From Bradymonadia bacterium (GTDB lineage: Bacteria; Myxococcota_A; Bradymonadia; UBA7976; UBA1532): a DNA stretch of 64,000 bases. The translations under genes and the position numbers were made by a program. The stretch is from contig JBKAGE010000036.1 in the NCBI GenBank assembly GCA_046290225.1, positions 300,918 to 364,917 of the forward strand, read 5' to 3'. Of this stretch, positions 55,481 through 60,877 are shown in pieces (positions within the stretch are counted from its first letter, which is position 1; each line of letters starts with the position of its first letter). Under the pieces are notes generated by a model. That model did not search any database. It was not told where the DNA came from and was given only the letters and a program-made list of their open reading frames with translations.

Positions 55481-55811
55481 TCGCTCCGCTGGCAAGAGAG
55501 TTTCGGGCACGGGCAAGGGCACGGGCACGGGCACGAGTTGATTCGGGTGTGGACCCGTGGTCCTGCATGATTCAGGACGAAGGTTGTCATTGAAGCTGAG
55601 ACGGTACGCTTCGAAATGGCCTGAGAGTTCAGATCTTGGGGTGTATGGACCTCAAAACCTCCACTGAGGAGAGCGTGGGGCCGAGCAAAGCCTCCAACAT
55701 CACAGACCCACGAGCGGAGTCATGCTGGGCCACGGGTCCACACCCGAATCAACTCGTGCCCGTGCCCGTGCCCTTGCCCGTGCCCGAAAACTGATCTGCG
55801 AGCGAAGCGAG
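55481..55811. repeat. Non-coding element copy A. It has about 90-bp terminal inverted repeats containing (GGGCAC)5 and a core of about 150 bp (MITE-like or long hairpin).
   Basis: The left arm 55481-55570 and right arm 55720-55811 are near-perfect reverse complements (…TTTCGGGCACGGGCAAGGGCACGGGCACGGGCACGAGTTGATTCGGGTGTGGACCCGTGG…). The hexamer tracts lie at 55505-55534 (+) and 55756-55785 (-). Confidence 0.85.
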
Positions 55812-55887
55812 GATCTCTTCCCCTCCCATGTGACACCCTGACCACAACCGGACTCTCCCCCAACACAAGCACAACACCGAGCCCTCC

Positions 55888-56526
55888 ATGCCCCAGGCCC
55901 CCGAGCACGCCGACATCGCCTTCGCCCACGCCCTCGCCAATGGCGAGCGCGAGGCCGTGGTGCGTTTCGAGGCGCAGTATCGACGGGTTATCCGGCATGC
56001 CCTCGGCGTGGCCATTCGGCGGTGGAAGCCCGAATCACCGGTGGAGCCCGAAGACTTCGTCCAGGACTTCATCGGCTTTTTGTTCACCGACAGAGGCCGT
56101 CGCCTGCGGAGCTTCGAGGGCCGTTCTTCCTTTGGTGGGTGGCTCTACACCGTAGCGTTGAGGCACTTCCAACGCGCCCTGTCCAAGCTCGCGAAGGACA
56201 GGCGCTCGGAGGTCGTCCTCACCCGGCTGCCCGAGCGCGAGGAGCGGCGACCTGACCACCTCGCAGCGGTGGCTGCCGACGCAGAGCGCTTGCGGGCGGT
56301 GGTGGGGCAGTTGCCAGAGCGTGATCGGCTTTATGTGCGCCTGTTCTATGTCGAAGGCCTCAACGCCAGCGAAGTGGCGCGCACCCTCGGCAAGCGACCC
56401 TCAGCAGTGCGCATGCACAAGATGAGACTCCTGGAACGCCTGCGGGTGATGCTCGACGAGCCCCCGGAGGAGACCACCTCGACGAGACCCGAGGCCACAC
56501 GCCGTCGGGTCGGGGAGGATCCATGA
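55888..56526 (+). CDS. ECF-type RNA polymerase sigma factor
   Basis: 212 aa with region 2 (EDFVQDFIGFLF...GWLYTVALRH) and region 4 (LPERDRLYVRLFYVEGLNASEVARTLGKRPSAVRMHKMRLLERLR). Confidence 0.9.
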   Translation: MPQAPEHADIAFAHALANGEREAVVRFEAQYRRVIRHALGVAIRRWKPESPVEPEDFVQDFIGFLFTDRGRRLRSFEGRSSFGGWLYTVALRHFQRALSKLAKDRRSEVVLTRLPEREERRPDHLAAVAADAERLRAVVGQLPERDRLYVRLFYVEGLNASEVARTLGKRPSAVRMHKMRLLERLRVMLDEPPEETTSTRPEATRRRVGEDP

Positions 56527-57794: not shown

Positions 57795-60389
57795 GTGCGT
57801 CGATCTGCATCGAGCCCCCTCCTCCCGGCGCTTCTCGCCGCGGCCACCACCCTGGCCGTCTGCCCCACGGCGAACGCCAACGTGACGCCCTTCGGAGAGC
57901 GGGTCAACGAGGCCATCGAGCGTGGCCTGACCTACCTGAGGAACATCCAACAGGGGAACGGCCGCTTCGGCGACAACAACACCTCTGGCGGGCCCACGGG
58001 CCTGGCGCTCCTAGCGTTCTTGGAGAAGCGGGCCAGCGCTGACTGGAACGCCGCTCACGTGGGCTATGAGAACTCCAGCCCTGATGATCAGCAGCGCATC
58101 CGCAACGGGGTGCGCCACTGCATCGACAACGTGCCGGGCTTCCGAGGCGGCAACCCCTACTCCTACACCACGGGCTCATGCCTCATGGCCCTGAGCCTCT
58201 ATCTCACCACCGGCGGCCCCAATGACGTAGGGGCAGGCGCCGCGGTGAACACCGCGGTGAACAACGCCGTGAATGCCCTGCGCAACACCCAGGGCAGCCA
58301 GGGCTCCAACCAGGGTGGCTGGAACTACACCACGCCCGACAGCAATGGCGATCTCTCCACGACGCAGTTCTCCATGGCAGGCCTCGCCGCGGCGGTCTCG
58401 GTGCGCCCGGACGCCGGCGACACCCTGCCCCTGGCGGTGAGCTTCGTCACCAACGCCAAGAACGGTGACGGCGGCCACAAGTACCGCAGCGGAGGCAACT
58501 ACAACAGCACCTCGGCGATGTCGGCCTCGGGCCTCTGGACCTACCGCCTCGCGGGCCTGCCCACGAGCGACGATCGGGTGCAGTCCGCCCTTGGCTGGCT
58601 GCAGAGCAACTATCGCTACAACAGCCTGATCACCATCAACGGTTGGCAGAGCCAGTACTACTACCTCTGGGCCGCCGCGAAGGGCTTCGAGGTGACCCCC
58701 GATGATGGCAATGGGGCAGCGATCTACGCCGACAACATCGGCGGCGTGCGCGATCCTGCCGGCGACGGGTTCCCCGAAGAAGCTCCGAACTGGTACTACG
58801 ACTTCGCCTGGTACCTCATGGACGTACAGGCAGGGAACGGCAGCTGGGGCAGCAACCCCGGCAGCTGGGACGTCACCGCAGCAACCTCGTACTCCATCCT
58901 CGTGCTGCAGCGCTCCCTCGGCGGGGTCTGCATCCTCGACGAGGACATGGACGACTTCTGCGACACCCTCGAAGACAACTGCCCCGGCATCCCCAACCCT
59001 GATCAGGCCGATCAAGACGGCGACGGCATCGGCGATGTCTGCGACAACTGTCCCGAGGAGGCCAACGTCGATCAGGTCGATGAGGACGCCGACGGCATCG
59101 GTGACGCCTGCGACGACATCATCTGTGTGCCCGACGGCAACCCAGATCTCTGCGACGGGCTGGACAACGACTGCGACGGCGAGGTGGACGAAGGTCCCGA
59201 CGGCGCCGCTCCGGTGGCCCCGGGCACCTGCGCAACGGGCCTGCCGGGCCTCTGCGCCACGGGTCAGCGCGCCTGCATCGACGGCGAGGTGGTCTGTGAG
59301 CCCGACAACGAGCCCACGGACGACATCTGCGATCTCTACGACAACGACTGCGACGGCATGATCGATGAGGGGCTCTACAACGTCTGCGGCACCTGCGGCG
59401 AGGTCCCTCAGGAAGAGTGCAATGGCATCGACGACGACTGCGACGGCACCATCGACGAGGGTGGCGATCTCTGCGACATCGGCGCCACCTGCGCTCAGGG
59501 CGACTGCCGCACCAACTGCCCGGATCGTGAGTGTCTCAACGGCGGTGAGTTCTGTGATCCTGATCTGCTGCTCTGTGGCGAGGCCTGTGAGCTGGTGGAG
59601 TGTGGCTTCGGTCTCGCCTGTGATCCGCAAACGAATCAGTGCTTCGACCCCTGCGCTGGCGTGAGCTGTGGCGACGGCGAGCGCTGCTGGCTCGGCGACT
59701 GCGTGCCCAATGACTGTGAGTACACGGGCTGTGAAGCGGGCAGCATCTGCGACGGCAACGAGTGTGTGCCTGATCCCTGCGCAGCGGCGGAGTGCGAAGA
59801 AGGCGAGTTCTGTCGTGGTGGTCAGTGTATCCCCAGCTGCGCTCAGGTCAGCTGCACCTTCGGTGAGGTCTGTGTTGATGGCGCCTGTGTAGAGGATCCG
59901 TGTGGCGGGGTCACCTGCCCCGACGGCGAGGCCTGCATCGACGGCTTCTGCGAGGCTGATCCCTGTGAGGGTGTGAACGATTGTGGTGAGAACCAGTTCT
60001 GCCTGAACGGCGAGTGCATCTTCGATCCCTGCACCGACGTGGCCTGTCCTCCGGGGCAAACCTGTGAGGTGCGCCAGGGGACGGCCCAGTGCATCCGCAT
60101 CGTTCAGCCCGAGCCGATGATGCCCCCTGGCCCCGACATGGGGGTCGGCGGCGCCGGTGGCATGGGCGGTATGGGCGGCGCTGGTGGATTCGGTGCTGGC
60201 CCTGGCGGTGCGGGTGGCACCGGCGGTGGTGGCATCACGCCTCCGCCCCCGGCACCTGACTCCGGCGTGGACGATGGCGGCTCTGGCGACGAGGCTGGGG
60301 GCTGCAACTGTGATGCTTCGACGGGCGGTGGTGCCTCCGGGCTCTGGCTGCTGGTCTTGGGCCTGGGGCTGTTGCGTCGGCGGCGCTGA
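57795..60389 (+). CDS. Large secreted multi-domain protein. Domains are prenyltransferase-like toroid repeats, thrombospondin type-3 Ca-binding repeats, three DxDCDGxxDE (MopE-like) motifs, Cys-rich repeats and a MYXO-CTERM sorting tail.
   Basis: GTG 57795 lies 6 nt after AAGGAG and gives the signal peptide (V)[27 protein letters not shown]. Motifs include [71 protein letters not shown] / [12 protein letters not shown] / [12 protein letters not shown], repeated DPC..V.C..GE.C..G.C units, and the C-terminus [30 protein letters not shown]. Confidence 0.8.
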
Positions 60390-60442
60390 GCTCTTCTATT
60401 GGGCTCTATCTGCAGCTCAGAATAAGTCTGACAGGTGTAGGA

Positions 60443-60877
60443 CTCGCTTCGCTCGCAGAGAGAGTTTTTCGGGCACGGGCACGGGCACGGGCACGGGCAC
60501 GAGTTTCACGGGTGTGGACAGTGCAGCCTGAGGCTGCATGTCTTGGAGCGAGTGTAGGCCTGCGTAGCCGGCCGGAGGGAGCGGAAAGACACCCGGAGGG
60601 CTGTCCACTGGTCAACCTGACCCATGGCCCTGCATGACTCCGCTCGTGGGTGTGTGATGGTGGAGGCTCCACTCGGCCCCATGTGTCTCTCATTGGAGGT
60701 TTTGACCTCCATACACCCCAAGACCTGAACTCTCAGGTCGTTCTGAAACGCATCATTCCAGCGTCAGTCGTAGCCTTTGCCCTGAGTCATGCAGGGCCAC
60801 GGGTTCACACCCGTAAAACTCGTGCCCGTGCCCGTGCCCGTGCCCGTGCCCGAAAACTGATCTGCGAGCGAAGCGAG
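60443..60877. repeat. Non-coding element copy B, from the same family as 55481..55811. Its core is inverted relative to copy A and it carries a nested insertion of about 100 bp.
   Basis: The arms are CTCGCTTCGCTCGCAGAGAGAGTTTTTCGG(GCACGG)n... at 60443 onward and ...(CCGTGC)nCCGAAAACTGATCTGCGAGCGAAGCGAG ending at 60877. Hexamer tracts lie at 60471-60500 (+) and 60822-60851 (-). The core 60630-60760 is the reverse complement of 55600-55720. The extra segment at about 60520-60621 is bounded by GTGGACAG/CTGTCCAC. Confidence 0.85.

Follow-up and report, generated by a model that had tools for sequence, protein, structure and literature searches.

Two inverted foldback repeats with hexamer-array arms flank an ECF sigma factor operon in an uncultured Myxococcota lineage

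We describe two copies, A and B, of a non-coding foldback repeat that flank a three-gene regulatory operon in a Bradymonadia bacterium of the Myxococcota_A. The window, meaning the whole stretch of DNA that was analysed, comprises 64,000 nucleotides of contig JBKAGE010000036.1 (positions 300,918 to 364,917; assembly GCA_046290225.1). Between the copies lie genes for an extracytoplasmic function (ECF) sigma factor, a putative anti-sigma factor and a large secreted or surface protein with a MYXO-CTERM domain. The gene putA lies to the left, and the distal end of a Bat operon, convergent with the three genes, lies to the right (Table 1). An earlier note on this DNA had proposed that A and B delimit the three genes as a composite mobile or recombination-prone cassette. 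The borders that it drew are borne out, as copy A (331 nt) ends 77 bp before the start of the sigma gene at 55888 and copy B (435 nt) begins 54 bp after the stop codon of the MYXO-CTERM gene at 60389. Comparison with relatives leads to a different view of their origin, in which the operon is an old neighbor of putA and the repeats are probably later arrivals.

The gene identities in that note (putA, ECF sigma factor, a gene in the anti-sigma position, MYXO-CTERM protein and Bat) agree with the domain matches. The start of the putative anti-sigma gene overlaps the stop codon of the sigma gene, and it is this position that suggests an anti-sigma function for the PEGA-domain protein. An exact look-up of its 367-aa open reading frame (ORF) returned no record, and a different start has probably been called. 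For the large protein, the identity and the stop codon hold; the 864-aa version given previously would start at 57795, and the longest ORF encodes 890 aa. The MYXO-CTERM domain occupies residues 861-890 of this ORF (TIGR03901, 21.2 bits; cut-off 20), and the gene contains internal repeats at 58974-59467. The three genes have a GC content similar to that of their surroundings. The 308 bp between putA and copy A (55173-55480) are unusually AT-rich, with 400-nt windows reaching a GC fraction of 0.53.

Table 1. Features of the window and short hairpins at other loci. Positions are those of the window unless they are preceded by the handle of another locus (L003 and the like). MAG, metagenome-assembled genome; P5C, pyrroline-5-carboxylate.
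Feature	Position	Strand	Details
putA (proline dehydrogenase / P5C dehydrogenase), left neighbor	52152..55172	-	1003 aa; PutA_N, Pro_dh, Aldedh
Element copy A, non-coding foldback repeat	55481..55811	n/a	331 nt
Copy A arms	55501-55584, 55706-55789		Loop 55585-55705
Copy A (GGGCAC)5-type arrays	55505-55534, 55756-55785		G-rich on + and C-rich on +, respectively
Promoter-like bipartite motif	55830..55858	+	GTGACAC-N16-CTC(N)(A/C); conserved upstream of sigma genes
ECF-type sigma-70 family sigma factor	55888..56526	+	212 aa; TIGR02937 64.8 bits (cut-off 42.9), Sigma70_r4_2
Putative anti-sigma factor	56523..57626	+	367 aa; C-terminal PEGA domain, 24.3 bits
Large secreted/surface protein	57717..60389	+	Longest ORF 890 aa; TSP3 and MopE-like Cys/Asp repeats, MYXO-CTERM
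Element copy B, foldback repeat	60443..60877	n/a	435 nt; core inverted relative to A
Copy B arms	60443-60519, 60803-60877		Arrays 60471-60500, 60822-60851
Segment in B, missing from A	60517..60618		102 nt; gap in A/B alignment, columns 90-191
TPR/SH3 protein and BatD, right neighbors	60913..63488	-	60913-61707 and 61704-63488; Bat operon distal end, convergent with the operon
Short hairpins, Chlamydiota MAG	L010:4893-4970; L004:1-34, 2695-2800
Short hairpins, Planctomycetota MAG	L003:6694-6826; L016:7266-7296
Short hairpin, Phycisphaera MAG	L021:7709-7797
Short hairpin, Desulforhabdus MAG (Desulfobacterota)	L012:4677-4716
Solo arm, another Myxococcota MAG	L024:2910-2947
Further listed hairpin loci	L028:336-434; L041:231-413

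Each copy folds back on itself. Copy A is a long imperfect palindrome with 84-nt arms, 90% complementary, around a 121-nt loop; in copy B, arms of 54-77 nt (92-96% complementary) enclose about 283 nt. The foldback arms as a whole measure about 80-95 nt in each copy, and each has a (GGGCAC)5 array. From outside to inside, an arm consists of CTCGCTTCGCTCGCAGA, a 5-nt spacer, TTTTC, (GGGCAC)5, GAGTT and, after three or four variable nucleotides, CGGGTGTGGACCCGTGG; the spacer is of the same type in both copies, GAGAG on the left and ATCAG on the right. Folded as single-stranded DNA, A reaches -131 kcal/mol (z -17.7) and B -163 kcal/mol (z -16.3) relative to shuffled sequences. By its sequence the array is a canonical G3N3 quadruplex-type tract, with one such tract per strand in each element. 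When the window was searched for the 18-mer (GGGCAC)3 with at most one mismatch, only the four arms matched, compared to none expected from 100 shuffles. A weak match resembling the array, at 9216-9247, falls within a coding ORF and was set aside as chance. The window holds no long inverted repeat, and no interspersed non-coding repeat, other than A and B.

The two copies are homologous, as the earlier note had said, but they are not simple direct repeats: besides being foldbacks, they are inverted relative to each other, and B is longer by a segment of 102 nt. Aligned over their full lengths, B and the reverse complement of A are 81% identical, and the inverted homology includes 260 nt at 82%. 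The asymmetric core, or loop, matches at 94 of 120 positions in inverted orientation compared to 33 of 50 in direct orientation. Over 40 nt, the inward-facing ends of the two copies show 98% complementarity. At the outer right ends, all 26 positions agree in direct orientation. The longest exact word shared by A and B, 37 nt, is also direct and lies in the right ends, and the arms share an exact inverted match of 23 nt. Summed over both ends, the outer termini fit a direct model at 47 of 50 positions and an inverted model at 43 of 49, a call that rests on few positions. The boundary of the 102-nt segment is ambiguous by 3 nt because of a repeated GAC, and the segment, which holds a small hairpin, TGCAGCCTGAGGCTGCA, was either gained by B or lost from A. 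Some arm variants are private to one copy and present in both of its arms, namely GGGCAAGGG and GAGTTGATTCGGG in A, and GGGCACGGG and GAGTTT(C/T)ACGGG in B. Such within-copy sharing could have arisen through selection for pairing, through conversion of one arm by the other or because the copies descend from different master copies.

No gene under coding constraint is present in the elements. Only one ORF, of 34 aa, is kept in both copies, and its ratio of nonsynonymous to synonymous changes (pN/pS) of 1.57 indicates that it is under no coding constraint. Six-frame translations of A and B, submitted as one chimeric query, had no match in the protein database at E <= 0.001, which is a weak negative. 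A search of the locus against Rfam 15 gave ar15 as its only match, at 20.6 bits compared to a gathering score of 40 (E = 0.77), and thus below threshold.

The repeat is present in an independent assembly. Logan contigs from the same organism (SRR22269038), assembled independently from short reads, are 100% identical to the window, and one of them (L048) encodes the exact sigma factor product. These contigs (L025, L048 and L049) end at window positions 55257, 55784 and 60853. The latter two positions fall exactly at the hexamer arrays, and the assembly is also fragmented in the AT-rich stretch upstream of putA. Breaks at the arrays are the expected effect of the 37-nt common end on de Bruijn assembly and have no bearing on whether further copies exist. 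No further copy was found in the 7.7 kb of additional host DNA on a Logan contig. Beyond the host, copy B had no match in plasmid and phage collections (blastn, distant mode), and a search of viral_contigs with the core pattern returned nothing. The 20-mer CACGGGCACGGGCACGAGTT, which occurs in all four arms, was found at 24 loci in genome_contigs, 17 in metagenome_contigs and none in viral_contigs, but a second full element was found at none of these loci, in collections of genomes and metagenomes that do not include the host genome. The matches are single arms or short hairpins, several of them inside coding His/Gly or Gly/Thr repeats. Because no other copy of the terminal inverted repeats occurs in the window, it holds no autonomous insertion sequence (IS) with matching ends. 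Searches of the literature for the hexamer array, for miniature inverted-repeat transposable elements (MITEs) in myxobacteria, and for MYXO-CTERM proteins together with ECF sigma factors yielded nothing relevant.

Relatives of the locus were found with the PutA protein of the window. The closest, L026, is an ENA metagenome scaffold (PutA 80% identical) that carries, in the same order and orientation as the window, BatD, the TPR/SH3 protein, an 857-aa protein, a 363-aa PEGA protein, a 213-aa sigma factor, divergent putA, an MCP-type gene and LeuRS. The spacers at the two borders of the operon measure 277 and 182 bp in L026, compared to 523 and 715 bp in the window. In blastn comparisons with L026, A and B gave only chance matches of 11-26 nt, none of them in the two border spacers. 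More distant relatives, with PutA about 65% identical, keep parts of this arrangement: L044 and L045 have putA, a 317-aa gene, the sigma gene, a 293-aa gene and a protein of 845 or 828 aa; in L046 the sigma and anti-sigma genes adjoin putA; and in L047 they lie a few genes from putA, with a truncated homologue of the large protein. The large protein is also found beside putA in two of these three lineages. Neither the element nor any GGGCAC array was found in the L044-L047 loci. A 317- to 352-aa gene with no Pfam hit lies directly upstream of putA in these relatives (L044:5878-6831, L046:8773-9786, L047:8808-9866), between putA and the sigma gene in L044-L046. Neither the window nor L026 has this gene, and its place in the window is taken by the AT-rich 308 bp and copy A.

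Protein identities (tblastn) to L026 are 76% for the sigma factor and 78% for the large protein, compared to 80% for PutA, 84% for LeuRS, 67% for the TPR/SH3 protein and 58% for BatD; to L044 they are 63%, 61% and 65% for the sigma factor, large protein and PutA. The identities of the operon's proteins track those of the flanking genes and, together with the shared synteny, they indicate that the operon is ancestral and vertically inherited at the putA site. The anti-sigma protein is only 42% identical to its L026 orthologue and has evolved much faster than its partners. Either the operon was present at its putA-proximal site before the elements, or the elements have been lost from all sampled relatives. 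We favor the former, with the elements as later additions in the lineage of the window; loss from every sampled relative is the less simple alternative. Alignments of the intergenic DNA of the window with L026 scored the same as shuffled controls, and an apparent empty-site block in a MAFFT alignment was set aside for that reason.

A second feature of the operon border is shared with the relatives. In six loci (the window, L026 and L044-L047), the sigma gene is preceded by GTGACAC with CTC 16 nt further on, and in all six the bipartite motif lies 8-29 nt upstream of the annotated start codon. These loci represent approximately five independent lineages, since L044 and L045 are near-identical there. 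The pattern occurs once in the 64-kb window, and as judged from these sequences, the recurrence of the 7-mer in so short an upstream stretch at all six loci is not due to chance. By analogy with the usual architecture of ECF systems, the motif is probably an ECF-dependent, autoregulated promoter of the operon. It begins 18 bp after copy A ends and is intact and inside the bracketed unit. A scan of 55100-61000 for sigma-70 promoters found no promoter-like site. In the same interval, a scan for intrinsic terminators found one weak site at the end of the gene for the large adhesin-like protein, below the expectation from shuffled sequences. Copy B fills most of the convergent gap, leaving 54 and 35 bp of other spacer with no other strong hairpin. 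The equivalent gap of L026, between the large protein and the TPR/SH3 gene, has a GC-rich hairpin with 33-nt arms (L026:5117-5185).

The scans with the 20-mer also revealed short hairpins of the form AACTC(GTGCCC)nGA, loop, TC(GGGCAC)nGAGTT in other MAGs (Table 1) and in several metagenome contigs. The spacing between arrays, as detected, is about 17-97 nt, and the loop proper of L010 is 13 nt. In 13 of 21 arms, from seven lineages, the two nucleotides before the array are TC, which the search pattern did not force, and a GCACAC variant unit is common to three lineages. Two loci also have sequence in common with the outer terminus of the window elements: CTCGCTTCGC...CAGATC in L003 (Planctomycetota), and AGATC...TTTTC and GAGTTGTCACGG in L041. 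In the lower-GC genomes, the hairpins lie just 3' of genes, as do those of the Chlamydiota and Desulfobacterota MAGs; in the Planctomycetota and the other Myxococcota MAG, they lie apparently in non-coding DNA. In all of these hairpins the GTGCCC arm comes first, opposite to the window elements. Rfam searches of these loci gave only sub-threshold chance matches to the microRNA models mir-466 and MIR825, and we found no literature match to (GGGCAC)n hairpins. The hairpins may be one horizontally spread family or a case of convergence. We consider it improbable that the arms of A and B belong to a family of palindromes, previously undescribed and spread horizontally, whose arrays are of the G-quadruplex-type form TC(GGGCAC)nGAGTT. 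On this reading a long-loop version would have come to flank the ECF operon, where it would be a mobile module with the role of a boundary or terminator and a substrate through which the operon could be flipped or deleted.

Among known systems, A and B may be set beside MITEs. Bacterial MITEs include the Correia elements (CREE) of Neisseria and the MITE-like elements of about 440 bp that flank class 1 integrons in Acinetobacter, the latter being another parallel to the flanking geometry seen here. Like MITEs, the elements are small (331-435 bp, below approximately 600 bp), non-coding and intergenic, with inverted repeats at their termini and more than one copy, the copies having identity in the 80-95% range; MITEs can likewise bracket genes and add hairpins beside promoters or 3' ends. 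Unlike MITEs, the elements lack a target-site duplication, no parent IS or transposase was identified for them, they are known from two copies, and their arms, built around a tandem hexamer array, are unusually long. Membership in a MITE family is not established, and we file the elements as working like a MITE or interspersed palindrome. REP/BIME (repetitive extragenic palindrome/bacterial interspersed mosaic element) and ERIC (enterobacterial repetitive intergenic consensus) sequences of enterobacteria are also extragenic palindromes, often between convergent genes, whose hairpins can act as barriers to transcription or decay. REP sequences, however, are about 35 nt long, within a range of about 20-40 nt, very abundant and linked to REP-associated tyrosine transposases (RAYTs), and ERIC sequences are 127 bp, compared to 331-435 nt here. 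Since A and B have no GT(A/G)G/GTAG-type head, no RAYT was seen and the window holds two copies, we do not class them with REP/BIME. In eukaryotic foldback (FB) elements, nearly the whole element is a long inverted repeat with short tandem repeats in its arms. This is a likeness of form only, as FB elements belong to another domain of life and no evidence of relatedness exists.

The possibility that the elements are transposon-like ends that brought, or still move, the sigma, anti-sigma and MYXO-CTERM genes is suggested by their geometry: inverted copies flank the cargo exactly, their inward ends are nearly complementary and no other copies occur in the window. Composite transposons such as Tn5 and Tn10 likewise consist of two inverted homologous elements around a few genes. 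The window elements, however, encode nothing, no transposase was found, and the unit as a whole is not flanked by a target-site duplication (...CAGGGG to the left of A, CCCACC... to the right of B). The comparison of the putA-to-Bat interval in relatives, which the earlier note had named beforehand as one part of what would refute its proposal (the other part being great abundance of the element with no enrichment at cassette borders), goes against it. L026 has the operon at the equivalent site with neither the elements nor any rearrangement, L044-L047 have it near putA, its orthologue identities match those of the flanking genes, and its GC content is like that of its surroundings. A mobile cassette as the origin of the operon is thus largely refuted, and we regard this reading as extremely unlikely. 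Homologous recombination between A and B could instead invert or delete the operon in part of the population, yielding on/off or loss variants of the surface protein. Such recombination is possible physically, given the 37-nt direct and 23-nt inverted exact matches and the inverted homology over 260 nt. The breaks of the short-read assembly at the arrays are compatible with alternative junctions but are not evidence for them, and the Logan contigs have the same junction sequences as the window. DNA that is 82% identical with short exact stretches is a poor substrate for RecA, and no site-specific recombinase is encoded nearby. Moreover, the promoter-like motif lies inside the bracketed segment, so an inversion would carry the promoter along and switch nothing. 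We consider a switch of this kind highly improbable.

A related possibility is that each element flips its core between the long arms, so that a signal in the core, such as one for the sigma gene downstream of A, would depend on orientation. The opposed cores of A and B, combined with outer right ends identical in direct orientation, the high complementarity of the arms and the position of copy A just upstream of the promoter-like motif are all compatible with this. The arrangement, with 120-280 nt enclosed by inverted repeats upstream of a regulator gene and opposite core orientation in the two copies, also resembles invertons such as fimS and the invertible promoters of Bacteroides type. The arms here, however, are 84-95 nt rather than 10-30 nt, and no recombinase gene adjoins the elements among the neighbors checked. 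The core holds no conserved promoter: a TTGTCA-N15-TACGCT candidate in the core of A is not conserved in B, and no sigma-70-like promoter was found in the region. Copy B lies in a convergent 3' gap, where a promoter would yield only antisense RNA, and the orientation signal of the termini is weak. We give this reading a slim chance at best. The suggestion that the elements insulate or regulate the operon may be stated more specifically, with hairpin, cruciform or G-quadruplex barriers retained by selection as functional boundaries that keep transcription of the ECF unit separate from that of putA and the Bat operon. The two known copies stand at the edges of a single transcription unit, copy B replaces the ordinary hairpin seen in L026, each copy has a (G3N3)5 quadruplex-type tract on each strand, and the short (GGGCAC)n hairpins of other phyla lie just 3' of genes. 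In contrast, the closest relative lacks the elements, only two copies are known, and copy A occupies a divergent gap on the upstream side of the promoter, where there is no read-through to block. We consider selection for insulation unlikely.

We think it probable, instead, that A and B are a lineage-specific, MITE-like foldback repeat that was inserted twice around an old operon, at intergenic sites that tolerate insertions, and that its structural effects are incidental. The copies would have been inserted independently into the two intergenic regions that flank the vertically inherited operon, and their sites would reflect intergenic tolerance, with A in the divergent promoter gap, upstream of the promoter, and B in the convergent 3' gap. 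A crude gene call gave 22 intergenic gaps of at least 50 bp in the window, or roughly 20 when a few artefacts (missed genes) are discounted, and the chance that two random intergenic insertions occupy neighboring gaps is approximately 10%. The bracketing alone is thus not strong evidence for a functional link. Once in place, copy B would probably act as a bidirectional transcription barrier or as a 3'-end structure of RNA, in the manner of a non-canonical terminator, and copy A, as its sequence predicts, would add 331 bp of DNA prone to form cruciforms and G-quadruplexes between the control regions of putA and the sigma gene. The inverted core, together with the near-identical outer right ends, is a hint of what would be the simplest explanation, either a flip by recombination between an element's own arms or gene conversion.

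Several observations weigh against this explanation. Transposition of the elements would have to be deduced from two copies only, the number known in approximately 72 kb of host DNA (the window and the Logan extension). No direct repeat of at least 2 nt, as expected of a target-site duplication, was found at A (flanks ...TTTCAGGGG and GATCTCTTC...) or at B (flanks ...GGTGTAGGA and CCCACCCCC...), and neither a transposase nor a recombinase with matching ends was observed. The hairpins of A and B are not followed by T-runs and are thus not canonical intrinsic terminators, and the orientation of the outer termini, direct or inverted, was called on the few positions given above. The relatives may also have lost the elements; their intergenic DNA is too diverged for an empty site to be aligned. 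Finally, a single operon has the two known copies at its borders, which, with so few copies, leaves room for a non-random, locus-specific origin or function.

Two further repeats in the window are tandem arrays in or beside coding sequence. One, with a 15-nt period, spans 27010-27366 (16 registered copies of a 105-nt reference), inside or beside an ORF on the minus strand (26803-27522). The other is an imperfect CTG/ATC-rich repeat with a period of 9-18 nt at 63586-63773, in a minus-strand ORF (63492-63983) upstream of BatD; it probably codes for part of a Bat protein, a low-complexity stretch that is acidic or rich in Gln.

The three genes should be annotated as an ordinary ECF regulatory unit, an old and vertically inherited neighbor of putA in an uncultured Myxococcota lineage, and the promoter-like motif provides a handle for a search for its regulon. 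The remaining interest lies in the repeat, a lineage-specific foldback with hexamer-array arms that breaks short-read assemblies, may be a transcription barrier and may have relatives in the short (GGGCAC)n hairpins of several other phyla. Such elements will be under-represented among MAGs built from short reads. A wider (GGGCAC)n family, if it exists, would represent a new class of structural DNA that is small and either mobile or convergently evolved.

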